A stretch of DNA of 38,445 bases, from the IMG/VR virus record IMGVR_UViG_3300012924_000005; one strand, written 5' to 3'. The position numbers were made by a program, and so were the translations under genes. This document shows, piece after piece, positions 11,006 to 38,445 of the stretch. The notes beneath the pieces were generated by a model. That model was not told the origin of the DNA. It saw only the letters and a list, made by a program, of their open reading frames with translations, and did not search any database. Position 1 is the stretch's first letter. Each line of letters opens with the position of its first letter. Source of the stretch: a virus.

Positions 11006-12718
11006 TTATGTTGCGATGCCGTGTGCCGGTCCCGTAGCGTCTTCCGGCCAACGGTACCCGTCAAAGCGGCAAAAGAGAAAGCCCCTCGGCCCTTCGGACA
11101 GCGGCTCTCCGTCATTCGGACAGGCAACCGGTGCCGCATTGTCGAAATCGCGTCGTAGCTCTTTCGCCTCTTGAATGATTGATAGCAATGACCACCAGCT
11201 AGCCACGTCAACATCACCCGTCCCCACGGAATCGGCAGATGCTTGAATCACCACCATGGCCTGCAAGCTTCCGCTCGCCACCATGGCGCTCTGCCCTCCC
11301 ACGAGCATACCGGCAGTGACGATCATGGCCGCGTCACCCCGGGCATTCACTCCCGCAGCGGCCGTCACCGCGCAGCTGGCCACGAGCGCGCCATTGATGG
11401 TCGGTCCCGATACCGTCGCACCTGCCGCAATCGTCCCGGTGCCAACCAGCGCGGCGCCGGCCACCGCCGCCAGCTGCCCCGCCCCCGCGGGCGCCCCGGC
11501 CCCGGACAGCGCGGCGCCCGACGTGAGGGTCCTGGTCACGTCCGCTGCGAGCGTTCCTGAGCCGGCCAGCGCCCCCGCCGCGGACGCCGCCAGTTGGCCG
11601 GCTCCAGCCAGTGTCCCGGTCTCCGCCAGCGCGGCGTCGATCGTCGGCCCCGCGGCCCCGATGGTCGCGCTCGCGCCGAGCGTCCCGGTGCCCGTCAGCG
11701 CGGCGTTAGCCACGGCAGCAAGTTGGCCAGCGCCCGCGATCGCCCCGGTCTCAACGGGTGCGGCGCCCGACGTGAGGATCCTGGTGGCGTCGGCAGCGAG
11801 GCTCGCTGTCTCGGTGAGGGTGGCCCCTGCGACGGCCGCCAGTTGCCCCGTGCCGGCCAACGCCCCGGTCTCGGCAGCCGCCCCTGCGGACGTCAGGTTC
11901 CGGGTAGCAGTGGCCGCGATGGTGCCGGTCTCCACGACCGCCGCGCCGGCAACAGCGGCAAGCTTCCCGGTCCCCGCGATCGCGCCGGTCTCAGTGAGCG
12001 CGGCAGCGGAGACGGCAGCCAGTCCCCCCGTCGCGGCCTCACTGCCGGTGCCGGTGAACGCCGCGTCCCCGGAGACCGCGCCGCCGCCGGCCGACTTCAC
12101 CAGGATCGTGAAGGTACCGCACTGTTTCGCTGTGGGCGAAATGCTCGACCACGTTTGTGCGCCGGTTGCACTGCCCGACGACAGCGCCTTCCAGGAGGCT
12201 GCCAGCCCCTGGAAGAGCACGCTCGCTTGCGTCTTGCCGAGGTCGGTCAGGCCAGTTGGCTGGACGTAGCTCAGCAGGTTGCCACCACACGAGTTCGTCA
12301 GGATCGCAATATCAACATCGTTTGTGCCGGATGGCGTAGCCGTCGGGCTGTCAAGCGTCGCGCCATTCGATGCGCTGTTGCCGGACGTGACGACAAGTAC
12401 CGGCGTCGTGTCGGCACCAGTAACCCGCACCAGCACCCAGGCACTACCAGCTCCGCTGTTATAGCTGAATGTCCAGCTCGACGGGTCGCCTCCGGCAACC
12501 ACATGCGTGAACACCTTGCAGCGCTGGCCACTGATGTTGACGGTCGTGGCATTCGCGGTCCATCCGGATGGCGTACCGAAGTCAGTGAGTACGCCGGAGT
12601 CAGCTGATCCGACAACCACCAACAAGTCACCAGCCGACGCTCCGGCTGGTTTATTGATCGTCTGCGGGGATGCCGAATCGCTGTTGTAGAAGACGGCCTC
12701 GGCGACGGTCGCACTCAT
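11006..12718 (-). CDS. repeat-containing virion-associated protein (570 aa; head or tail fibre candidate)
   Basis: Long ORF with a globular N-terminal region of about 210 aa. It then carries about five 40-aa A/G/T repeats and ends in ...WWSLLSIIQEAKELRRDFDNAAPVACPNDGEPLSEGPRGFLFCRFDGYRWPED. Confidence 0.8.
   Translation of the reverse strand: MSATVAEAVFYNSDSASPQTINKPAGASAGDLLVVVGSADSGVLTDFGTPSGWTANATTVNISGQRCKVFTHVVAGGDPSSWTFSYNSGAGSAWVLVRVTGADTTPVLVVTSGNSASNGATLDSPTATPSGTNDVDIAILTNSCGGNLLSYVQPTGLTDLGKTQASVLFQGLAASWKALSSGSATGAQTWSSISPTAKQCGTFTILVKSAGGGAVSGDAAFTGTGSEAATGGLAAVSAAALTETGAIAGTGKLAAVAGAAVVETGTIAATATRNLTSAGAAAETGALAGTGQLAAVAGATLTETASLAADATRILTSGAAPVETGAIAGAGQLAAVANAALTGTGTLGASATIGAAGPTIDAALAETGTLAGAGQLAASAAGALAGSGTLAADVTRTLTSGAALSGAGAPAGAGQLAAVAGAALVGTGTIAAGATVSGPTINGALVASCAVTAAAGVNARGDAAMIVTAGMLVGGQSAMVASGSLQAMVVIQASADSVGTGDVDVASWWSLLSIIQEAKELRRDFDNAAPVACPNDGEPLSEGPRGFLFCRFDGYRWPEDATGPAHGIAT
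11384..12058 (-). repeat. in-frame tandem coding repeat, period about 120 bp, about 5 copies
   Basis: Alternating 20-aa half units ETGxxAGxGQLAAVAGAxLx and ETGTxAAxATRxLTSGAAxx begin at aa 243, 283, 323, 366 and 406. Confidence 0.85.
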
Positions 12719-13699: not shown

Positions 13700-14166
13700 T
13701 ACGCTGCCACCACCTGAGAGCCGTTCTCGTACGGCACATAGGTCATCGACCATTTGATCGCGCCCGTGTTCGTGGCAGCTGTATTCAGCTTGATGCCACC
13801 GATCGGAATCACGAGGCCACCCCGGGTCAGGCTCAGCGCAGCCCCGGCGTTCGTGCCGGAGAGCGCGGTAGACAGCGCGGTGCCATCCAGCGAGATCAGT
13901 GCACCCACTTCGAATGCATTGATGTCGAGCGTGCCCGAGATGTCTTTCGACGTGCCAGTCGTCGGAACCGACTTGATCTTGATGGCGTTCGCCTGAGCCT
14001 GAATGATCGTCGTCACTTCGCCCACCAGCGAAGTGAGGATGATCCGACCACCCGAGACGGTGAAGATCGTCAGATCGGTAGACGCGGGCAGGGTCGAGGT
14101 GACTCGATCCACCTTGATGCCCATCGCCAGCTGGCGGATGTTCGCATTCGCAATGATCGTCGTCAC
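13699..14166 (-). CDS. hypothetical virion protein (about 155 aa)
   Basis: The GTG at 14166 lies just after the stop of the upstream ORF, with GGGGGTG as RBS. The track ORF (to 14283) would overlap the upstream gene. Confidence 0.6.
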   Translation of the reverse strand: MTTIIANANIRQLAMGIKVDRVTSTLPASTDLTIFTVSGGRIILTSLVGEVTTIIQAQANAIKIKSVPTTGTSKDISGTLDINAFEVGALISLDGTALSTALSGTNAGAALSLTRGGLVIPIGGIKLNTAATNTGAIKWSMTYVPYENGSQVVAA

Positions 14167-14167
14167 G

Positions 14168-14596
14168 TCACACCCCCAGCGCGGGCAGGTTGCTTGGCGT
14201 GCGCTGGTGATACAGGTCATGCGTGATGGCCGTGACAGTGGCCGCGCCGGTCGATGTGAGCTTAACGTACTTGTACGTATCACTTAGCCAGGTGCCGTCG
14301 ACGTAGCACGCCATCGCGGACTGTGCGGCGGCGGCCGTAGTGGTGATCGTCGCAAGGGCCGCCTGCGTCGCAGCGGTCCACGCATCGGTGCCGTCACCGG
14401 TCGAGAGCCACCACTTCGCCAGGCGTACGAGGTTCTGCGCACCCGTGCCGGCAGCGTCCTTCGCCTCCTGAAGAGTGAACACATCACCCGTGCTTGCCAG
14501 GTACCCGAGGAACGTCACACCTTCACTATTGTCCAGCCGCACCCAGTTACCGTCAGCCTTCGGCGCAAGGTTGAACAGCCTTCCCAGACCTTCCAT
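14168..14596 (-). CDS. hypothetical protein (142 aa), first gene after the capsid
   Basis: ORF track. GGAGAGG lies 8 nt before the ATG. Confidence 0.7.
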   Translation of the reverse strand: MEGLGRLFNLAPKADGNWVRLDNSEGVTFLGYLASTGDVFTLQEAKDAAGTGAQNLVRLAKWWLSTGDGTDAWTAATQAALATITTTAAAAQSAMACYVDGTWLSDTYKYVKLTSTGAATVTAITHDLYHQRTPSNLPALGV

Positions 14597-14674
14597 TTTC
14601 GTGCCTCTCCGATCGGGGTTTCAATGCCGATCAAGTTGACCCTACCGGGATACCGTATCCCTCGGGCTAGAGCG

Positions 14675-14744
14675 TGCCCCCGGCCCGGCTCGAACGGGCT
14701 GCCACCCTGCTTACGAATCCCGCAAGGCATTCGTGGGCGGAGGC
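14675..14744 (-). ncRNA. tRNA-like element (non-canonical), 6 nt downstream of the major capsid stop
   Basis: On the minus strand: GCCTCCG, then 38 nt, then T-arm GCCCG-TTCGAGC-CGGGC, then CGGGGGC and A. The acceptor pairs 7/7 with one G-U. A 15-mer GGCAGCCCGTTCGAG is identical to the element at 31667-31736. Confidence 0.45.
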
Positions 14745-14750
14745 GGCTGA

Positions 14751-16247
14751 TCAGCGAGTAGCGATTTGCACGAACGGAGAAAGCGTGGAACCACCGTTCT
14801 TCGGAGTGATGGCAGACTGAATCCACGGCCGGCCATCGACGCGCTCGATGATGCGGAACGCCGTCACGTCATTGCCAAACTTGTAGTGCTCGCTCGACAT
14901 CGCGCTCATGACCTGACGATCACCGATCAAGTAGTAGCCCAGATCCGCGAACACGATGTCACCGGTCGTGCCGACCACCGGAGACTTCTCGGTGAAGATC
15001 ACCGGCCGGCCGAGGATCGTCATAGGCGGACCCGCCTGGCCATTGGCCAACCACACCGGCGCGCCGCCCGTACCCACACTGAGTGCCATGGTGGCCAGCT
15101 GCGGGAAGGTGTCGATCGACGCGATCCACACCGCGCTGCCCAACGAGCTGGGCAGCATCCGGGCGAACATCTTGACGAGGTTCTCCCAGACGATGGTGCC
15201 GGTGGGCTGGCCAGCCTCAGCGGCCACGGCCACGCTGGCCGCGCAATTGATGAAGCCGAGCGGCTCGCCAACTCCGGTGCCGCGCATGAACGCGTAGTCC
15301 TCGTAGAACGCCAGCCCGGCCGGGAAGATCTGGTCGATGAATGCCTGGAAGCTGATGGCGGAATCCGCAATCAGCTCATTCGGCACTTCGGTGTACGCGG
15401 TGAGCTTCTTCGCGTCCAGCACGACGCGGGAGAACTTCGCCTGCGACACGGTGAGAGCGGCAGCCTCTTCTGTCCAGTATCCGACAATGCCGCCGTACAC
15501 ACTGGACACGTTCGACGTGGTGTCGATCGAGGGGAACGGCACCCGTAGGGTCTCCATCGGGATGACCCGGGCGCGCTGTCGAACCACTGACTGCTCCAGC
15601 GCCACGGCTAGAAGCTCGGCGCGCAGCACCTCGGGGATCAGGAAGCCGCCCTCGCTCGGCACCGTGGAACTGAAGGCGTTCTGGAAGGTGCTCCGCAGCT
15701 CCGACCCGGCGTACCCCCGCTGGCCGGCGTTGTGCCAGACCACGTTACGGAACAGCTCCCCGGAGCCGCGCATGTTGCGGTACGGGGCGTCGAGCTGCGC
15801 GCCCATCGCGTCCGGGTTGTGCGTCGCGTTGAAGCGCGGCGACGTGGTCTCGATCGCCCGACGGGTCGCATCGACGGCGCCGCGCAGGTCGAGGTGCCTC
15901 AGCGCCTCCGGCTCATTTTCCTTGAGCCACGCGGTGAGCTGCCGCTGGGTTTCCTCGCGGACCTGGACGGCGATAGACGCATCCTTGTCCACGACGGTCT
16001 TGGCGTAGTTACCAATGAACTGCTTGAACGTGTCCGGATTGGCGAACACGTTCCGCATGGTGGCCGGGTCGCCGAGCATCGCTTCCAGCTCAGCGGCGCT
16101 GGTCGGCACCGGCACGTCGACCGGGGCCGCGCGGTTGAATACCTTGCCCACGTCACGGAGATCGATCCCCGCGCTTTCCAGCATGGCGAATTGCATCTGT
16201 GCAGCGCGCGCTTCGCGTACCGCGCGGGCGGTCATGACCTTACTCAC
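14751..16247 (-). CDS. major capsid protein, HK97 fold, with an N-terminal delta/scaffold-like region
   Basis: 498 aa. It has a coiled N-terminal region of about 110 aa followed by ...GGFLIPEVLRAELLAVALEQSVVRQRARVIPM.... It follows the protease with a GTGA overlap, and GGGAGG is the RBS. Confidence 0.9.
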   Translation of the reverse strand: MSKVMTARAVREARAAQMQFAMLESAGIDLRDVGKVFNRAAPVDVPVPTSAAELEAMLGDPATMRNVFANPDTFKQFIGNYAKTVVDKDASIAVQVREETQRQLTAWLKENEPEALRHLDLRGAVDATRRAIETTSPRFNATHNPDAMGAQLDAPYRNMRGSGELFRNVVWHNAGQRGYAGSELRSTFQNAFSSTVPSEGGFLIPEVLRAELLAVALEQSVVRQRARVIPMETLRVPFPSIDTTSNVSSVYGGIVGYWTEEAAALTVSQAKFSRVVLDAKKLTAYTEVPNELIADSAISFQAFIDQIFPAGLAFYEDYAFMRGTGVGEPLGFINCAASVAVAAEAGQPTGTIVWENLVKMFARMLPSSLGSAVWIASIDTFPQLATMALSVGTGGAPVWLANGQAGPPMTILGRPVIFTEKSPVVGTTGDIVFADLGYYLIGDRQVMSAMSSEHYKFGNDVTAFRIIERVDGRPWIQSAITPKNGGSTLSPFVQIATR

Positions 16248-17170
16248 TTGCTTGCCTCCCTTACGGCATTGCGAAACATGTCAGAGTCAAACATGAATTC
16301 GTTATCTCCTGGCTGCGCGCCACTGCGCACAGCGTCGAGCATGACCCGGCGAAAAGCCTCCGGATCGAAGATCATTTCGAGTTCGGCCGCATCTGTCGGC
16401 AATGCGACAGCCAGCAACTCCGGCGCACGCGGCCCCCGGTAGCCATACGCTGCCGGCTCGAACCGTGCCGACATGTCGGGTTCCGGCTCAGCGCCTGGCG
16501 GTTCCGGGACCTCCGGCGGGTCCGGAGCTTCGGGTACCCCCATCGCCCCCACGATGCCGTCCGCCAGGCCGGCGTCTACCGCCTCCTGGCCGGTGTACCA
16601 GGTCTCAGCCTGCATGCGCGTGCGCCAGTCCGCCACGGTCCCACCGGCCCGGTCCGCATAGAACTGCGCGATCGTGTCACTGCACTTGTCCAGCAGGTTG
16701 GCCGTGGTGCGCATATCTGCCGCATTTCCGATGCACAGTCCAGAGCCGTCATGGATCATCATCATGGCGGACTTACTGATTGTCACCGTATCGCCCGCCA
16801 TGGCGATGACCGACGCGATCGACGCGGCCAGGGCATCCACGAACACGTTGACCGTGGCAGCGTGCGCCGACAGCGCAGAGTGAATCGCAATGCCGTCGAA
16901 CACCTCGCCACCCGGGGAGTTGATATGCAAGTTGATCGTGTCGGCCTGAAGCGACATCAGCTCCGACACGAAGTCGCCTGCTGTAATTCCCCAGAAGCCG
17001 ATCTCGTCATAGATGTAAATGTCCGCCAGACCCCCGCTGCTCAGATTCTTGATCTGATACCAGCCGTTCCGCCCATCGATCTTCTGCGCGTGCGCCCTAT
17101 CTCCCTGTGGACGTTGCGCATATGCGGAGCGCAGCCCTTCGGGCAGGAAGCGCACAAGGTCTATCGTCAC
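16244..17170 (-). CDS. capsid maturation protease, ClpP/S14-like
   Basis: INSPGGEVFDGIAIH...ALAASIASVIAMAGD...MMMIHDG, with a Pro/Glu-rich linker and a C-terminal tail. Confidence 0.88.
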   Translation of the reverse strand: MTIDLVRFLPEGLRSAYAQRPQGDRAHAQKIDGRNGWYQIKNLSSGGLADIYIYDEIGFWGITAGDFVSELMSLQADTINLHINSPGGEVFDGIAIHSALSAHAATVNVFVDALAASIASVIAMAGDTVTISKSAMMMIHDGSGLCIGNAADMRTTANLLDKCSDTIAQFYADRAGGTVADWRTRMQAETWYTGQEAVDAGLADGIVGAMGVPEAPDPPEVPEPPGAEPEPDMSARFEPAAYGYRGPRAPELLAVALPTDAAELEMIFDPEAFRRVMLDAVRSGAQPGDNEFMFDSDMFRNAVREASK

Positions 17171-19347
17171 TTTTCACCACCCGTTTGATCGGGGCGCCAC
17201 ACGCCCACTACGGTTCCACGACAACGCGCCCCACCGAGACAGTGAACATATCCACTGAACGGGTAGGTTTTCTCGACCATCTCCATGTCGGAGATGTTGC
17301 CCAGCCATCGCCCGTCAACCTCGCGGCACGGGCCGCACGTGTTCGAGTCGTTCTGCTCACTGGCGTACAGCGCACCATCCGGCGCGGCGCGCAACGTCGC
17401 CACCCGGCCGGCCGTCTGCGCGGCGCCCAGCGCCCCGCCCAACTGAAGCCGGGGATCCATGTCGGTCAGCGCATCAAGGTGCGCCCGGACCGCGTCGGCG
17501 ACTTCGTGCCCCGGAGCTCCGGGCCGCCGGGCGCGCAGCGCTGCCGCTGCCGCGGAGATGGCCAGCCCCGCCGCCAGGATGCCCACTGCGACCACGGCGC
17601 CGGCCGTCAGGTCCGAGCGCTTGGGTGCGACCGGATCCACGCCAGAGACGCCCTGAGCCTCCGCCTCTCGGCGGACCTGGCCGCCGGCCGACTCCCCGAG
17701 CGCGACCATCGCGGTCAGCAGCTTGTCGTAGGCGTCGTCCGTACTCACGGTCAGGTCGGCCGGCGCGAGCGGCTTGTCGCCGTCAACCGCCTCGCGGACC
17801 TGTCGCACGAGCGCGTCGTACTGCGCCCCAGTAACCGTGCCCCACTCGGCCAATAACCGCGACAGGGCATGCTCCCAGGCGTCCTGCACAGCAGTGAGAT
17901 CAACGTCCTGGCCACCGGTCGCCTCATTGCGCAGTACCCATCTCGCAGCCGGCGCGCCGAAAGCGGTAGGTGCCGGTGCGGGCTGTGGCAAGTTCAGATC
18001 AAGGTTAGCGCCAGCATCATTCAACATCTGCCGCGCTTCCGTCCAGGTGACTACCTTGTCGACCCCGAGATACACCTTCTGAACAAGGTTCCCGATCTCT
18101 GACACATCAAGCGCGCCACTGTCCAATGCGCCGGACGGAGCGGTCGCCACGACCGCTTTCATCACCACGGGCGGTAATCCGACAATCTCGGCAGCGCTGT
18201 CAGGGTCCACGCCAGCACTGATCAGCGTAGCAAAGTTCGTGCACTGCGCGGTCTGCTCAGCAGTGAGCTGTTCCTTGTTGTCCGGCGTCGGATCTTTGTA
18301 GTCCATTTCGAGGCCCACGGCACCGAACATTGGGAGGAGACGGTAATTCAGCGCATCGCGGAGACGGTTCGCCCGCGGCACCGTGAGGTTCTCAGCGAAG
18401 ATCTCTTTGCCAGTCTCCGCATTCGCCCTATTGACATCTTCGGTAACGCCAAGCATCGACTTCGGGAAACCGAATGCCTCCATGATCGTATCCCGCGATA
18501 ACGTCTGCAACTGTGCAAATTGCATATCACGCTGCGAGAACTTGCGGTCCACCCACTTGCCTTGCTCAACGATCGCCACGCGATGCGCCGCAGAGACGCC
18601 CTGGTGCTGCTCTCGCCATCGAGTGGTCATCTCTTTGAACTCAGTATCCGACAAACGCTTGTCGATCTCGATGATACCGCCCGGCTCAGCGGAGTTGAGG
18701 AAGAACGTGCGGTTCCACTCCGCTCCATACTTAGCCGAGTCGACATATGTCAGAATCGACTGCACCGGGCCGAGCCCGCGATAGGGGTCAAGCGGGTTTG
18801 GCATCTTGATCTGAATGACTTCGTCACGCTGCAACGGGATGCGCTCACCGTCCGGGGAGGTGTAGATGTACCCCGCGATGAAGCTATCCACGCTTGGCAC
18901 CGGCGTCATCCGGTCAGGACGCACCGGCCACATCCCCAGCACCACCGAGCGGACCATGGCCGACCGCTCGACCAGCCACCAGCCCTCGCCGGTCAGGTCA
19001 ATATGCTGCTGTGTCGCCTCGCAAAATTCAGCGTTCGTATAGAACTCATTAGGCGCATTCCACATATCGAGGATCGCGTGGCTGGAAACCTCGACCCGAT
19101 CTTCCTTGTTTCCCGACGCGGCCTTGCGCCACAGCGTCCAATCCAGCGCGGCCACCGCGGTCGAGGTCTTGTGCACGATGCCGAACAAGGTGCCGCTAGC
19201 ACCGAACGCCGCGAGTTGCTGTTCACGATCATTGCGCAGGGCCAGATGGAAGCCGGTCATACTGGCGCGGGAAGTGAGCGGCACCGGAGGTGCCTCGCCA
19301 CGCACCGCGCGGACCGCGTCCCGAATGCCCGCGAACGTTGACCTCAA
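17167..19347 (-). CDS. portal protein fused to a MuF-like (SPP1 gp7-like) minor head protein
   Basis: The portal-like body is followed by a C-terminal ...NDSNTCGPCREVDGRWLG...HCLGGARCRG motif (TCxxC..DG plus CRC), as in the Mu F family. The start is TTG 19347 (overlaps the upstream TGA) or ATG 19260. The track start at 19563 is unlikely. Confidence 0.85.
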   Translation of the reverse strand: MRSTFAGIRDAVRAVRGEAPPVPLTSRASMTGFHLALRNDREQQLAAFGASGTLFGIVHKTSTAVAALDWTLWRKAASGNKEDRVEVSSHAILDMWNAPNEFYTNAEFCEATQQHIDLTGEGWWLVERSAMVRSVVLGMWPVRPDRMTPVPSVDSFIAGYIYTSPDGERIPLQRDEVIQIKMPNPLDPYRGLGPVQSILTYVDSAKYGAEWNRTFFLNSAEPGGIIEIDKRLSDTEFKEMTTRWREQHQGVSAAHRVAIVEQGKWVDRKFSQRDMQFAQLQTLSRDTIMEAFGFPKSMLGVTEDVNRANAETGKEIFAENLTVPRANRLRDALNYRLLPMFGAVGLEMDYKDPTPDNKEQLTAEQTAQCTNFATLISAGVDPDSAAEIVGLPPVVMKAVVATAPSGALDSGALDVSEIGNLVQKVYLGVDKVVTWTEARQMLNDAGANLDLNLPQPAPAPTAFGAPAARWVLRNEATGGQDVDLTAVQDAWEHALSRLLAEWGTVTGAQYDALVRQVREAVDGDKPLAPADLTVSTDDAYDKLLTAMVALGESAGGQVRREAEAQGVSGVDPVAPKRSDLTAGAVVAVGILAAGLAISAAAAALRARRPGAPGHEVADAVRAHLDALTDMDPRLQLGGALGAAQTAGRVATLRAAPDGALYASEQNDSNTCGPCREVDGRWLGNISDMEMVEKTYPFSGYVHCLGGARCRGTVVGVWRPDQTGGEK

Positions 19348-19583
19348 CGGGTCAGCCGCCACTCCAGGAACAGCAGCCCCAGCGCGCTGGCAATCAGGCC
19401 CTGCGTCACACCGAGGTGCCAGCCCGCGCCGGCCACGCACCCGACCGCCCCGAGCGCGGCCAGCGGCAGCCGGGCGGTCAGGCCCACGAGCGCCGCGATC
19501 CCCGCCACCAACACCTCCGCCACAGGGCGTCGCTGCCGGGCCTGAGAGCGTCCCTCCCGCCATGCCGCCGTGATGGTGGACAT
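19344..19583 (-). CDS. small membrane protein (79 aa) between terminase and portal
   Basis: The ATG at 19583 has GAGGGGG 8 nt upstream. The sequence is MSTITAAWREGRSQARQRRPVAEVLVAGIAALVGLTARLPLAALGAVGCVAGAGWHLGV..., with 2-3 hydrophobic segments. Confidence 0.5.
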   Translation of the reverse strand: MSTITAAWREGRSQARQRRPVAEVLVAGIAALVGLTARLPLAALGAVGCVAGAGWHLGVTQGLIASALGLLFLEWRLTR

Positions 19584-19693: not shown

Positions 19694-21076
19694 CTACAGC
19701 CAACGCACCCGGGGGCGCGCCGCTAGGTCGCGCTCCGCCACCAGGTACCGCATCGCATCCATGCCGTGGTCATCGTTCTTGGCTGGCTGCTCTTTTTCCA
19801 GCTTCTTGCCGCTGGCGTCCCGCGCCCAGACGTACCCGGTGATCTCCTCCAGGGTGCTCGTGGGCCGGCCCGCTTCCGCTAGCTCCGTGTCGCGCTCGAC
19901 CAGTACGTCCCGCACCAGGCCCAGCCGGGGCAGCCCGTCACCCTGCACGCGAAGTCGCATCTGTACCGCCTGAATGCCGTCGCTGACTGCCTTCATCGCG
20001 GGCACCGTGCTGAGCCCGAGTTCGCGCTCCAACGTTGCGCGTCCCTCGGCATCGTGATCGCACACAATCACCTGAGGTTTCGGCTCTCGCCAGATGCGCC
20101 CGTGATAGGCGAACCGCTCCGCGCCCTCGGGGTGCCGATACTCCCGATCCACGATCGACACATGCTTCATGATTGTCTGCGCATGCTGATCCACCGTACG
20201 GCGCGTGTGATATATCTCACGATAGAGAATCAACCTGCCGAACTGATCCATCGTCCAGAACTGACAGACAAACGGATTCGTATATCCGAAGTCAATTGAC
20301 CAGAAGCGAGGCCAGTCAAATGGAGGCATCTTCGGCTTATCCAGTAGATGAATCTCGGGATCGTACTCGTCATAGACGATACCCTCGGCAGCTATCCATT
20401 TACCGTACCGCAGGCGCGCCTTGCGCACCCCGGTTAGCCGATCAAGCTTCGAAATGTACGACGCGCCATCGGTCGTCACGTTGCCATCTTCATCGAACAA
20501 CCGAGGGTTATCCTCGTGTCGACACCAAATGACCTCAGTCTGCCCTTTCTCAATCCGCTGATTGAGCCAGTGTGTCGGCCGATCCGGGTTCGTGTCTGAG
20601 ATAATCTGCTGATACGTCAACTTGCCGTTACGCAAACGCGTCGTCAGCGACTCCCAGTCACTCTCGGTTAACTCGATCGCCTCCTGCACATAGATCAGAT
20701 CATACTCCGATGACATGATCTTTGATGGCTTGTCAATGCCACCGATGACGATGACTGATCCGTTACGATACCGATACTGCGGCGGCTCCTGCGAGCTACC
20801 CCCGTAGAACTCCAACTCGCCAACCACCATGCCCTCTTTGACCACGTGCTCACGCCACGTCACCAGCGCCGTGGAGCCAAGCGAGGCGAGCGTCTTGCGC
20901 ACGATCAACCCCCGCATACCCGGCGTCACGAGCGCGGCAAGGTGCATCTTCTCCAGGCACGCCCGCGACTTCCCGGTACCCGCCGCCCCGGACATCACCA
21001 CCTCGTCCGCCCGACACCGGAAGACAGCGGCAGCGGACCCGCGGGGCCGGTACCGGTGCTCCAGTACCGTGGCCAA
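19694..21076 (-). CDS. terminase large subunit
   Basis: Walker A SGAAGTGKSRA, Walker B-like DLIYVQEA, and a C-terminal nuclease-like region. 460 aa. TTG start directly after the TerS stop. Confidence 0.9.
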   Translation of the reverse strand: MATVLEHRYRPRGSAAAVFRCRADEVVMSGAAGTGKSRACLEKMHLAALVTPGMRGLIVRKTLASLGSTALVTWREHVVKEGMVVGELEFYGGSSQEPPQYRYRNGSVIVIGGIDKPSKIMSSEYDLIYVQEAIELTESDWESLTTRLRNGKLTYQQIISDTNPDRPTHWLNQRIEKGQTEVIWCRHEDNPRLFDEDGNVTTDGASYISKLDRLTGVRKARLRYGKWIAAEGIVYDEYDPEIHLLDKPKMPPFDWPRFWSIDFGYTNPFVCQFWTMDQFGRLILYREIYHTRRTVDQHAQTIMKHVSIVDREYRHPEGAERFAYHGRIWREPKPQVIVCDHDAEGRATLERELGLSTVPAMKAVSDGIQAVQMRLRVQGDGLPRLGLVRDVLVERDTELAEAGRPTSTLEEITGYVWARDASGKKLEKEQPAKNDDHGMDAMRYLVAERDLAARPRVRWL

Positions 21077-29655: not shown

Positions 29656-29732
29656 GGAAAGTTGTGGTCTGGATGGCAGTCATGTTCACTGCAATCTATG
29701 CTATTGCATTTATCGCGGGGTGGCACTCGTGA
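29652..29732 (+). CDS. micro-ORF, single-TM peptide (26 aa)
   Basis: ATGA overlap. MRKVVVWMAVMFTAIYAIAFIAGWHS*. Confidence 0.4.
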   Translation: MRKVVVWMAVMFTAIYAIAFIAGWHS

Positions 29733-29815
29733 GGGGGGTTCGCAACGGGCTGGTCATCACGTTGATCATCGCGGTGATCTTCATTGCTTGGCTGCATGGG
29801 AGCGGAAGGATATGA
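29729..29815 (+). CDS. micro-ORF, single-TM peptide (28 aa)
   Basis: GTGA overlap. VRGVRNGLVITLIIAVIFIAWLHGSGRI*. Its stop overlaps the next ATG (ATGA). Confidence 0.4.
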   Translation: MRGVRNGLVITLIIAVIFIAWLHGSGRI

Positions 29816-31044
29816 GCGACGACTTCGATTCGCCCCGACGTGTGTACGGGTTCGATCGCTTCGGGCGCCGGCTACTCCCGGTTCCGGGGGAAGATCCGAA
29901 CAACATCATCCCGTGGACCCGAGCGACGACACTCGCAAGCACGGTCGATGACATGTGGAACTTGCAGCAATGGCAGCTGCGGATGGTGGCGCACGGCATC
30001 GGTAAGCGGTCAGATCTGTATAGCTTAGCCGCTTCGCTCGATCCGGAAGACGATAAGGGCGATCTTCAGAAGGTCTGCAACGACGCGATGGAGGCGGCAG
30101 AAGCGCGAGCCGGAGCGAACATGGGCACCGCCCTGCACAGCTTCACGCATGTGCTTGATCGTGTGGGTGTTGTCTACGCGCCGGAGATGTGGCGCGGACA
30201 CCTTGACGTGTATCGGCGGGGCATGGACAGCACAAACTACTCGGTAGACCGCAACTTCATCGAGCGCGTGTGCGTCAATACGCAGATCAAGACGGCGGGA
30301 CAGTTCGATCGGCTGCTAAGGCCCCCCTTTTCGATCAAGGGCGAGTACATGATCGGCGACCTGAAGACCGAAAAGGGTGATTTCGAATACAGCATGCGCC
30401 GGATCGCAATTCAACTTGCGATCTACGCAAACTCCGACTTCATCTGGGACGCGGCCACCCACGTCTACGCCCCGATGCCGAGCATGGACCGCCAGGCCGC
30501 AATCGTGATGCACCTCCCGGCCACCGGCCCTCCCCGCTTCCAGCTCTACGAAGTGGACATCGCGGCGGGGTGGGAAGCGGTACAACTCGCGCTGGACGTG
30601 CGGACCTGGCGCAAGCGCAAGGGCTTGATGCGTCCCCTCGGCGTCGCGCTGGTCGGCGCGAAGACGGTGCTCGACATCGAGAACCCCACCACGGGCGAGC
30701 TTGACCCGATCGCATCCCCCCAACCGTCGGCTGGGCTGGTGCTCGTGGGCGAGAGCGGTCCCGAGTTGGTGCCTGCGGCCCCGGCAGAGCTGCCCCCGGG
30801 TGACGGGGTACCGGCGCCACCGGCGCCGGTGGAGGCCGTCTCAACGGATTGGGCCAGCTCATGGCTCCGCGCGGCCGAGGCGGGAGCGCTGGACGCGCGG
30901 GACTGGAGAGAACTGGCCGCGGGAGTCGACTCCCGAGAGGCAGCGAGCGCGCTGTGGCGGGCGGCAGTGAAGGCCGGCGCCTGGACGACGGAGCTGGAGA
31001 ACACGTGCAAGAAAGCTCTTGACAAGTCAATAGCTACTGCGTAG
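29812..31044 (+). CDS. PD-(D/E)xK nuclease, Cas4/RecB-like exonuclease
   Basis: GQFDRL...MIGDLKTEKG...IQLAIYA (D, DxK and QxxxY pattern). It starts at MSDDFDS; the upstream extension in the track has a non-coding third-position bias. Confidence 0.75.
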   Translation: MSDDFDSPRRVYGFDRFGRRLLPVPGEDPNNIIPWTRATTLASTVDDMWNLQQWQLRMVAHGIGKRSDLYSLAASLDPEDDKGDLQKVCNDAMEAAEARAGANMGTALHSFTHVLDRVGVVYAPEMWRGHLDVYRRGMDSTNYSVDRNFIERVCVNTQIKTAGQFDRLLRPPFSIKGEYMIGDLKTEKGDFEYSMRRIAIQLAIYANSDFIWDAATHVYAPMPSMDRQAAIVMHLPATGPPRFQLYEVDIAAGWEAVQLALDVRTWRKRKGLMRPLGVALVGAKTVLDIENPTTGELDPIASPQPSAGLVLVGESGPELVPAAPAELPPGDGVPAPPAPVEAVSTDWASSWLRAAEAGALDARDWRELAAGVDSREAASALWRAAVKAGAWTTELENTCKKALDKSIATA

Positions 31045-31301: not shown

Positions 31302-31395
31302 GACATTGATCACACCCTCGTGTCGCAGTCCCGCCGAACGGCGGCACAAGATCAGCGCGTTCTGATTCCGCGCTGGGTGGAAATGAATCAGGGTA

Positions 31396-31461
31396 GGGTG
31401 GACGGATTCGCCTCCCCAGGTATTGGATCCGACACGAGGGGTTCGACTCCCCTGCCACCCA
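31396..31461 (+). ncRNA. tRNA-like element 1 (non-canonical)
   Basis: GGGTGGA (also present at 31375) pairs 6/7 with GCCACCC. T-arm AGGGG-TTCGACT-CCCCT (31437-31453). In between there is a single long hairpin, 31403-31431. Confidence 0.4.
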
Positions 31462-31495
31462 CGAGCGTCGACGGGACCCTCAACCCGAGCGATGC

Positions 31496-31564
31496 CGAAC
31501 GTTGCGGTAAGGCGCGTCGATCTCTGGGGGGAGATCGAAGTGGGTTCAGGTCCCACGCGTTCGC
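31496..31564 (+). ncRNA. tRNA-like element 2 (non-canonical)
   Basis: Acceptor CGAACGT/GCGTTCG, with a U at position 8. A 3-bp D-like hairpin has GG in its loop. An 8-bp hairpin TCGATCTC-TGGGGG-GAGATCGA follows. T-arm GTGGG-TTCAGGT-CCCAC. Confidence 0.45.
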
Positions 31565-31666
31565 GTGTCCGGGGGCGTGCCCAGAGCACACTTCGCGTCC
31601 CCGGACACAACTGAATAGCTCGCGGGAACTGTCCGGATAGGGTCCGGGTCACACGAACCGCGAGCA

Positions 31667-31736
31667 CCTCATGCCCCGGGCGTGCACACACGAGTGCACA
31701 CGTGGAGGGCAGCCCGTTCGAGTCGGGCCATGAGGG
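31667..31736 (+). ncRNA. tRNA-like element A (non-canonical)
   Basis: Perfect 7-bp acceptor CCTCATG/CATGAGG. T-arm GCCCG-TTCGAGT-CGGGC (31712-31728). The 38-nt core has a GTGCAC-ACACGA-GTGCAC hairpin with a 6-nt loop. Confidence 0.5.
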
Positions 31737-31837
31737 CGAGGCAGTGACACATCGAACAGATGGCCGCTGAGCTGTGTCACGTAAGTCCTCTGGCTACCTC
31801 CTTCATCGATTGCGGTCGGTGATCGTAGGCGAGAACC

Positions 31838-31904
31838 TCCCATGCTCAGGGTGCGGTGAAATTCCGCCGGCAACGGACAGCCCGTTCAAGTCGGGCCATG
31901 GGGC
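31838..31904 (+). ncRNA. tRNA-like element B (paralog of A)
   Basis: TCCCATG/CATGGGG. T-arm GCCCG-TTCAAGT-CGGGC (31880-31896). The core holds GCGG-TGAAATT-CCGC and a CCG-GCAA-CGG tetraloop hairpin. The 5' flank GCGAGaACCTCCCATGC matches A (GCGAGcACCTCATGC). Confidence 0.45.
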
Positions 31905-32020: not shown

Positions 32021-32437
32021 ATGACCGATCCATTCAGCGACGCACGATCCGGGTTCATTACGGCCGAAGACTTTCAGGGGCGGTTGCTGCTTGTCGCGGT
32101 GACCGGGTTCGAGGCAAACCGTGAATCAACCATGAACCCCGGCAAGACGTTCGATACGATCATCGCGGACGTGACGGTACTCGACGGTCCGATCACTGAG
32201 ATGTTCGATCACATTCCAATGAAGATCGAGGGGCAGTACCTGTCCGGCTCCGGTCTCGTGCCGCAACTCAAGGGCAAGGTCGGCAAGGTGCATCCATCAA
32301 ATCAGATCCTCGGGCGCATGACGCAACGGCCGGCGCGGGTGACCGGCTTCAAGCCAGCCAACGTACTCGCCGAGCCGACCGACGCGGACAAGGTGACGGC
32401 GCGCGCGTACCTCGCAACACTCAACCCGTTCGAGTAG
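32021..32437 (+). CDS. hypothetical protein (138 aa)
   Basis: MTDPFSDARSGFITAEDFQGRLLLVAVTG.... The upstream part of the track ORF overlaps the structured RNA region. Confidence 0.7.
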   Translation: MTDPFSDARSGFITAEDFQGRLLLVAVTGFEANRESTMNPGKTFDTIIADVTVLDGPITEMFDHIPMKIEGQYLSGSGLVPQLKGKVGKVHPSNQILGRMTQRPARVTGFKPANVLAEPTDADKVTARAYLATLNPFE

Positions 32438-32527
32438 GGTCATCGCAAAGACTTCAATCTCTCTGGGGGACCCGGGGATGATGGGAGCGGGATCGTGATT
32501 GGGGAAGGTCGCGGCCCGGCAATGCGG

Positions 32528-38227: not shown

Positions 38228-38445
38228 TCAGCCGGCGGCTGCGGCGGCAAAGACCTGACGGACGGCGGTAGTCACTGCGCTGGCTACCCCGGCAGCCACG
38301 TCGGCCGGCAGCGCGGCCACCACCCGGGCCGCGAGTTCGTCCGCGTGCGCGGCCAGGGCGGCGGCGGCCCCGGCATCCGCCGCAGCGGTGATCGCGGCCA
38401 ACTCCTCCGGCCCGATGTCGACTTTGGCCGCGATCGCGTTGATCA
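38228..38445 (-). CDS. lysin C-terminal part (Ala-rich helical tail), stop TGA at 38228-38230
   Basis: It reads in frame with 1-772 through the repeat: ...ELAARVVAALPADVAAGVASAVTTAVRQVFAAAAAG*. Joined length is about 288 aa. Confidence 0.7.
   Translation of the reverse strand, partial: INAIAAKVDIGPEELAAITAAADAGAAAALAAHADELAARVVAALPADVAAGVASAVTTAVRQVFAAAAAG
38323..38445. repeat. terminal direct repeat copy 2 (identical to 1-123)
   Basis: Exact 123-nt match to the window start, read by eye. Confidence 0.95.

Follow-up and report, generated by a model that had tools for sequence, protein, structure and literature searches.

Directly behind its capsid gene, the phage genome analysed here carries a 70-nt element that resembles the top half of a tRNA and belongs to a widespread phage family whose core is common with an unannotated RNA-like element of actinobacterial genomes. 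The structure of this element (element 5), its family membership, the covariation in its helices, its orientation and its lineage-specific position were all observed in the comparisons reported below. What it does is addressed by analogy: we favour the reading that it functions in the late transcript as a processing signal of the RNase P/RNase Z type or as a 3'-end signal, similar to the t-elements of plant mitochondria, and regard this reading as possible rather than probable.

The window, i.e. the whole stretch of DNA that was analysed, is 38,445 nt long and has a GC content of 63%. Its first 123 nt (1-123) are identical to its last 123 nt (38323-38445), which means that the window is a complete phage genome, either circular or terminally redundant. 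The late genes were found on the minus strand and the early genes, including a helicase gene, on the plus strand (Table 1). The nearest named relative is Streptomyces phage Dagobah, with a capsid identity of 50%, and prophages of Catellatospora, Nonomuraea, Amycolatopsis and Streptomyces have capsid homologues of 60-68% identity; from these homologues the host is taken to be an actinomycete. Re-assemblies of the same phage aside, we found no relatives closer than 68% capsid identity for a test of conservation or selection, and cultured phages yielded no megablast match to the capsid region. The same phage was also assembled as an ENA contig (38,463 nt) and as a Logan contig. The element-5 region was identical in both of these independent assemblies, so element 5 is not an assembly artefact. 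Elsewhere in the genome, the minus-strand ORF 11006-12718 contains, at 11422-11948, six diverged copies of a 38-nt unit with spacings of 60, 69, 120 and 180 nt, which suggests a repetitive segment of a 570-aa structural protein that is without a Pfam match.

Table 1. Coordinates of element 5, its flanking modules, related elements and the genes named in the text; the last two rows refer to positions within the host loci.
Feature	Position	Strand	Remarks
Element 5, whole tRNA-like element	14675-14744	minus	70 nt, core 38 nt
Capsid stop TGA (14753-14751) and 6-nt spacer UCAGCC	14745-14753	minus	
P1 acceptor-like stem, 5' strand GCCUCCG	14738-14744	minus	7/7 pairs (one G-U) with 14676-14682
Unpaired C8	14737	minus	at least 90% conserved in family alignment A4
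CCA, 5' strand of the 3-bp P2 base	14736-14734	minus	pairs with UGG at 14702-14704
Variable hairpin CGAAUGCC-UUGC-GGGAUUCG, insert in P2	14714-14733	minus	as in predicted folds
UGG (3' strand of the P2 base) and CA linker	14700-14704	minus	
T-arm GCCCG-UUCGAGC-CGGGC	14683-14699	minus	inside the 30-nt stretch identical to host loci, L033 and L045
Acceptor 3' strand CGGGGGC and discriminator-like A (14675)	14675-14682	minus	followed by C-G
Second module CUCUAGCCC-GA-[GGGAUAC G GUAUCCC]-GGUAGGGU	~14639-14672	minus	between element 5 and the loop-motif hairpin
Loop-motif hairpin uugaucgg-CAUUGAAACC-ccgaucgg	14609-14634	minus	adjoins the SD of the gene that follows the capsid gene
HK97-type capsid gene	14751-16247	minus	Pfam Phage_capsid, E 8.5e-53; stop 14753-14751
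ClpP-type protease gene	16244-17170	minus	late gene
Portal gene	17167-19563	minus	late gene
Terminase gene	19694-21076	minus	late gene
Exonuclease gene	29662-31044	plus	early gene
Two more tRNA-like elements	31375-31460, 31496-31563	plus	relaxed descriptor
Element A, paralogous family member	31667-31736	plus	strict descriptor match (31667-31735); 70 nt, core 38 nt
Element B, paralogous family member	31838-31904	plus	strict descriptor match (31838-31903)
phrog_870 gene	32021-32437	plus	
Host element, example in L103	2170-2340	minus	
Host element, example in L094	~1515-1645	plus	

Read along the minus strand, element 5 has the order GCCTCCG / CCC / ACGAATGCC-TTGCG-GGATTCGT / AAGCAGGGTGGCA / GCCCG-TTCGAGC-CGGGC / CGGGGGC / A (14675). 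It shares its strand with the capsid operon, is situated between the capsid stop codon and the next gene and has the trailer A-C-G after its 3' strand. The earlier note had described this sequence, its spacing of 6 nt from the capsid stop, the 7/7 acceptor pairing with one G-U and a total and core length equal to those of element A, and in all of these our analysis agrees with it. The T-loop matches the tRNA T-loop consensus, U54 U55 C56 R57 A58. Judged by eye, the loop sequence CGGG could also form 4 bp with a CCCG located 9-12 nt after element 5.

To define the structure we used a strict descriptor consisting of a 5-bp T-stem, a TTCRANN loop, 7/7 acceptor pairs with no more than one G-U and a gap of 10-130 nt. 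In the whole window it matched only element A, element B and element 5, in comparison to 0.03 matches expected per simulated window, which places the complete structure far beyond chance. The designation of element 5 as a fifth member, made before our analysis, is also justified, as a relaxed descriptor adds two more elements (31375-31460 and 31496-31563). The 15-mer common to elements 5 and A, described in the earlier note, is real and is part of a longer match of 21/22 positions (14682-14703 against 31708-31729); it had three matches at up to two mismatches in the window (0.2 expected). Taken alone, however, the 15-mer is weak evidence, since at 63% GC chance alone would give about four inverted 15-mer pairs in this window.

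Evidence for a common architecture came from covariance model R1, which was built from 24 host-genome copies and no phage copies. Over the window, R1 gave significant matches only to element A (46.2 bits), element 5 (40.2 bits, E ~5e-6) and element B (31.2 bits), and the match to element 5 spanned the full length of the model. Thus, a model derived from unrelated host copies detects all three elements, which supports the proposal that they belong to one structured family. The minimum-energy fold of the isolated 70-mer (-34.9 kcal/mol, z -1.45) nevertheless has a disrupted T-arm, and the tRNA-like fold, at -30.0 kcal/mol, is 4.9 kcal/mol less favourable. For element A, the tRNA-like fold is the minimum-energy fold (z -3.46).

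Element 5 is not a canonical tRNA gene, as ARAGORN called 0 genes in the window and Rfam (RF00005 included) returned nothing at gathering score or at E<=10 for 14550-14850. What it does have is the top half of a tRNA: a 7-bp acceptor on a 5-bp T-stem, a UUCRANY T-loop and a discriminator base. The likeness to canonical tRNA genes and to those of phage clusters extends to the UUCGAGC loop, the discriminator A and the A-C-G/T trailer, and the T-arm of a tRNA-Thr from tRNA arrays is identical to that of element 5. Unlike a canonical tRNA, however, element 5 has no D-arm, no anticodon arm or loop, and C instead of U at position 8. Other candidates were rejected as well. For tmRNA, the dedicated ARAGORN search and Rfam were negative. 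A tRNA 3' fragment of the attP type does not fit, because element 5 has its own complementary 5' strand and lies inside the structural operon, and there is no integrase among the 30 scanned ORFs. The sequence GGGUGGNA is T-box-like, but the A1 3' strand of a T-box antiterminator is missing and the neighbours are not aminoacyl-tRNA synthetase genes. A retron msr was dropped because reverse transcriptase was not enriched nearby, and Guanidine-I/III, FMN and SRP RNAs were negative in Rfam or far below threshold. YrlA, a bacterial Y RNA, has mimics of the D- and T-arms in a permuted topology, contains a Ro60-binding stem and is encoded beside rsr (Chen et al. 2014, PMC4201824). Both kinds of RNA are actinobacterial and phage-borne and mimic the tRNA T-arm and acceptor, but the topology differs: the stem of element 5 is made by its own 5' and 3' ends, a D-arm mimic is lacking, and no TROVE/Ro60 gene was found in the 30 window ORFs or among 92 neighbours of host copies.

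In the IMG/VR collection, the T-arm 20-mer CAGCCCGTTCRAGYCGGGCC, used as query, was found in 36 phage contigs, and ARAGORN called none of these matches a tRNA. We treated these loci (L021-L056) together with A and B as the family set. In each contig the 7 nt located 3' of the T-arm are complemented 10-200 nt upstream, and the sequence of the resulting stem differs from contig to contig. P1 is Watson-Crick paired at 7/7 positions in 18 of 40 loci, in comparison to 1.7 when the 3' strands were shuffled. Six of the seven P1 pairs vary on both sides, a count that is biased towards structure because the 5' strands were picked by complementarity. The P2 base helix was tested at fixed offsets, without such selection: in the phage copies, pairing of many types was seen in 72% of cells between the three nucleotides after C8 and the three before CA. 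CA itself is invariant in 39/39 phage copies and in the host alignment. The covariation of P1 and of the P2 base indicates that the family forms a three-way junction, P1 - C - P2 - CA - T-arm, with a 6-7-bp P1, C8, a 3-bp P2 base and the T-arm CAGCCCGUUCRAGYCGGGCC as its consensus. The extra helix that the earlier note had suspected between the C-rich and G-rich tracts is thereby backed, both by the phage P2 base and by the X/Y pair of the host copies (see below).

Members differ in the variable arm, which ranges from a few to more than 100 nt and is absent in members of 45-50 nt, so that the total length varies from 45 to more than 120 nt; about one third of the members have a P1 of just 6 bp. 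Most are followed by the trailer A-C-(G/T), as are the true tRNA genes of the same phage contigs, and four members (L026, L028, L031 and L044) lie next to or within true tRNA clusters of the same strand. Mini-elements with other T-stems are also present on the family contigs, which indicates that the T-arm pairing itself is maintained across differing sequences. With a strand caller of about 85% accuracy, 31 copies had the orientation of the flanking genes and nine the opposite one. Around half of the copies have a downstream SD and start codon within 60 nt or an upstream stop codon within 80 nt. PHROG and Pfam scans of the flanking genes revealed no single associated gene; the identifiable neighbours are early and replication genes (SSB, endonuclease VII, exonuclease, primase and phrog_870, the last also in the window). 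Element 5 has every feature of the phage family: P1, C8, the 3-bp P2 base, CA, the T-arm, the A-C-(G/T) trailer, the sense orientation and the intercistronic position.

Among 50,697 cultured phage genomes, the 20-mer was absent and a blastn search with element 5 gave two weak partial matches only. One of these (L190, 1490-1545, early intergenic DNA of Mycobacterium prophage prophiT49-3) is an unannotated tRNA-like 3' end, GGCGCG-TTCGAGT-CGCGCC-GGGGGC-ACCA, which may represent either a tRNA fragment of the attP type or a diverged member of the family. Full-text literature searches did not find the T-arm string, and keyword searches gave no description of the family. The family is thus apparently uncatalogued, whereas a tRNA-like structure embedded in an mRNA is of an already known kind.

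GTDB genomes also gave more than 120 stretches with the 20-mer, nearly all of them from Actinomycetota (more than 100 genomes), in genera that include Streptomyces, Mycobacterium, Micromonospora, Frankia and Amycolatopsis. About 90 of these stretches, among loci L071-L189, represent a conserved, unannotated RNA-like element. Its 5' part consists of a -10-like box, a covarying P1 of 4-5 bp, C, CCX, a class-specific hairpin, a G-rich YGG and CA; the 3' part continues with the T-arm-like hairpin, the P1 3' strand, a loop-complementary tail and a terminator-like or SD-sequestering hairpin. The tail is complementary to the loop of the class-specific hairpin and, judged by eye, would form a pseudoknot. 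All 24 aligned copies have either A-U (13 copies) or U-A (11 copies) as the X/Y pair. Element 5 and the host element thus have in common the core P1 / C / CCX...YGG / CA / GCCCG-UUCGAGC-CGGGC, and element 5 is identical to host copies over 30 nt (AGGGTGGCAGCCCGTTCGAGCCGGGCCGGG), which take the form GGGUGG-CA-GCCCGUUCGAGCCGGGC-CGGG, and in CCGCCCA. The phage copies, in contrast, appear to lack the pseudoknot tail and the terminator/SD-sequestering platform, and the host copies lack the A-C trailer.

Rfam 15 assigned the host copies to no family. Their neighbours (92 examined) were heterogeneous, with no consistent regulon. In Mycobacterium, the element lies 3' of osmC in three of the four loci examined, and at least three adjoin a tRNA-Ser gene on the opposite strand. 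In five Streptomyces loci (L073, L076, L104, L122 and L187) we noticed a conserved direct repeat, GTTGATGTCAG-N5-GGATGTCAG, about 110-130 nt downstream of the host element; it resembles arm-type or operator sites. Three of the 20-mer stretches are true tRNA-Thr genes inside tRNA arrays. Dense arrays of this type, with up to 33 tRNA genes in about 4 kb, are present in the Actinomycetota MAGs L070, L077 and L172; in L070 and L172 a tRNA-Thr has the exact T-arm 20-mer, and the match in L077 was called tRNA-??? by ARAGORN.

The position of element 5 behind the capsid gene had been taken earlier as a sign of function, and a search of related phages for the same arrangement had been proposed. We compared 33 loci, namely 19 IMG/VR and 13 metagenome capsid loci (45-79% identity) and Dagobah. 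Neither the descriptor nor R1 found an element of this kind after the capsid gene in any of them (0/33). The post-capsid position is therefore lineage-specific and not a conserved feature of capsid genes, and with the family residing mainly in early and replication modules, the argument from position is not supported. Most relatives have a plain GC-rich hairpin just 3' of the capsid stop, and the closest relatives then have a conserved module, CUCUAG(C/G)CC-hairpin. The third module, a hairpin whose loop reads CA(U/G/A)UNANNCC and whose stems differ and covary, stands directly before the SD of the next gene in 18 of 25 capsid-relative loci; in L005, L012, L013 and L014 this type of hairpin is also the first one after the capsid stop. 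The second module of the window is kept in L002 and L058/L064, where its outer GCCC/GGGU (GGCC/GGCC) pairs compensate, as judged by eye; the module downstream of element 5 is thus also present in relatives without element 5. As the window retains the second and third modules, element 5 has taken the place of the first, the relatives' stem-loop, and since the relatives keep a structured module there, a structured RNA signal is evidently needed at this site. No terminator-like site of the Rho-independent type was found in 14000-16400, and no T-run follows element 5.

Elements A and B belong to a group of four tandem tRNA-like elements (31375-31904, plus strand) in a non-coding stretch of about 1 kb between the exonuclease and phrog_870 genes. 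Two elements of this cluster have other T-arms (GGGG-UUCGACU-CCCC and GUGGG-UUCAGGU-CCCAC). For the elements at 31375-31563, Rfam gave only weak tRNA-Sec and Tymo_tRNA-like matches, far below the gathering scores (for instance 19 bits against a gathering score of 40 for Tymo_tRNA-like at 31394-31479). At the end of the phrog_870 gene (32396-32455, plus strand) there is also a degenerate T-arm copy, CAACCCGTTCGAGTAGGGTCAT, 86% identical to that of element A, to which R1 gave 10.8 bits (E 1.8). Element A had been presented as the counterpart of element 5. It is not, however, its nearest relative: the 30-nt identities are with elements of other phages (L033 and L045) and with host copies, and the nearest sequence relatives are the phage elements L024, L033, L045 and L054. 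These four have the stem type GCCCCCG/CGGGGGC; L033, L045 and L054 share an ACGC trailer, and L024 instead shares ACGAATGCC, the start of the element-5 hairpin. That element 5 is closer to elements of other phages than to A or B points, by sequence, to acquisition by recombination rather than local duplication. The recombination scar considered earlier is accordingly only half of the description, because, although recombination probably brought element 5 in, what is present is not a stray 15-mer but an entire element that has a compensating acceptor stem of its own.

According to the reading that we favour, one copy of the family replaced the post-capsid stem-loop of the relatives and would act on the late polycistronic RNA. 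The acceptor/T-arm stack would be recognised by tRNA-maturation enzymes of the host; RNase P would cut the 5' edge of element 5, 6 nt after the capsid stop (from the tRNA-like geometry, between 14745 and 14744), and a 3' activity, of the RNase Z type or another, would cleave behind A14675. These cuts would uncouple the capsid message from the downstream head-completion genes and release a stable RNA of about 70 nt. In minihelix substrates, RNase P, the 3' tRNA nucleases and the CCA-adding enzyme read the 7+5-bp coaxial stack, the T-loop, G1-C72 and A73, and all minimal features of an RNase P/3'-enzyme substrate are present in the element-5 sequence. We favour processing because stem length, T-loop, G1-C72, A-C trailer, sense orientation, intercistronic position and association with tRNA clusters are conserved. 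The covariation of P1 and the P2 base, the structure far above chance, the proximity of co-oriented copies to SD/start or stop codons, the members at true tRNA clusters with the same trailer and the structured module kept at this site in relatives are all consistent with it.

A precedent for the mechanism exists. The t-elements of plant mitochondria are tRNA-like but non-canonical in fold, have an acceptor stem together with a T-arm motif that is conserved and are located in mRNAs adjoining coding regions, and cuts by RNase P and RNase Z that form mRNA ends and release a small RNA have been proposed and partly shown (Forner et al. 2007, PMC1920247). However, they belong to another domain of life with other enzymes, bear no sequence relation to the phage element and lack a counterpart to the near-invariant T-arm that the phage family has in common with a host RNA. 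We also considered tRNA mimics of other origin. In the phage regulatory RNAs C4 of P1/P7 and CI of P4 and in MALAT1/mascRNA, a tRNA-like acceptor/T-arm module within a longer transcript serves as the host RNase P signal that gives a defined RNA end; their function is antisense regulation or involves a triple-helix stabiliser. No antisense or triple-helix feature is seen in element 5; the Rfam C4 family has no match in the window, and there is no sequence similarity between element 5 and these RNAs. The tRNA-like structures of plant RNA viruses and the corresponding tmRNA domain likewise mimic the acceptor and T-arm without a normal anticodon domain; they differ in being aminoacylated and in their location at the 3' terminus of an RNA that ends in CCA.

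Several observations weigh against processing. The minimum-energy fold, by which the T-arm is broken, is preferred over the tRNA-like fold, and the element is absent behind the capsid gene in all 33 related loci. Cleavage by RNase P would deprive the capsid mRNA of a 3' hairpin, an effect contrary to that of the hairpin in the relatives. About a third of the family have stems of only 6 bp, and the host copies have stems of 4-5 bp and no A-C trailer. Furthermore, the 30 nt of identity to host copies point to a further partner that is sequence-specific, since a T-stem of fixed sequence is not a requirement of generic tRNA enzymes.

Alternatively, element 5 may be a passive substitute for the lost hairpin, i.e. 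a stable barrier to 3' exonucleases or an attenuator without a U-tract, with its tRNA-likeness irrelevant and reflecting only the origin of the DNA. We consider this unlikely, although less so than the other alternatives. A stable hairpin stands at the equivalent position in relatives and the downstream modules are conserved; element 5 would be stable in either fold (-30 to -35 kcal/mol), and its position is lineage-specific. On the other hand, the tRNA-like features are all intact, including the A-C trailer and a 7/7 acceptor that differs from those of A and B; a good RNase P substrate could not remain on the mRNA, and a canonical terminator is absent.

The 30-nt identity and the CCGCCCA common with host copies may have another meaning, namely that element 5 copies the core of a conserved actinobacterial RNA and binds or titrates its partner (a protein, ligand or RNA), tying late expression or host takeover to that partner, with the resemblance to tRNA being secondary. 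The detection of A, element 5 and B at full length by the host-only model R1 and a T-arm sequence conserved far beyond the need of tRNA enzymes agree with this mimicry. It is distinctly unlikely in our opinion, as the phage copies appear to be without the pseudoknot tail and the terminator/SD-sequestering platform and have longer, tRNA-length stems and a tRNA-type trailer, and the gene neighbours of the host RNA give no hint of a partner. More speculatively still, the 30-nt core could be the recognition module of an undescribed Actinomycetota RNA, which by its three-way junction, pseudoknot and terminator-like or SD-sequestering platforms is similar to a riboswitch or a protein-binding regulator; phages would have captured this module, joined it to stems of tRNA length and distributed it over their operons in order to recruit or titrate a host factor, and the post-capsid copy would then put capsid expression under a host signal. 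We would give this scenario rather little credence.

A neutral recombination product or selfish mini-element, of a family spreading among phages by illegitimate or homologous recombination, that came to lie without a function in an intergenic spacer that tolerates it appears improbable. Its location is unique among the relatives, its nearest sequence relatives are in other phages, and the family is scattered over unrelated gene contexts, all of which such a product would explain. However, the site is under some constraint, as the displaced module is conserved in relatives; the sequence at the element-5 junctions shows neither a target-site duplication nor terminal repeats, and the compensatory changes across the family imply selection on the fold. 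Finally, a signal at the DNA level, with hairpins in single-stranded DNA serving as a priming, recombination or packaging site, is very improbable: DNA hairpins would show stem covariation too, and members often lie near SSB, endonuclease VII, exonuclease and primase genes, but the loop is the tRNA T-loop consensus, the trailer is that of true tRNA genes, the orientation follows transcription and element 5 sits in the middle of the structural operon.

Punctuation of transcripts by tRNAs is textbook knowledge for mitochondria and is known from a few coliphage regulators; as a widespread family in phages it is, to our knowledge, undescribed. If element 5 is processed as proposed, actinobacterial phages would use tRNA punctuation of their operons, and the uncoupling of capsid and downstream transcripts would be explained in the absence of a canonical terminator. 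For phage annotation, the family marks sequences now overlooked by tRNA finders and by Rfam. It further provides a handle on an unannotated RNA-like element of many actinobacterial genera, and this host-genome counterpart may be a more important lead than element 5 itself.
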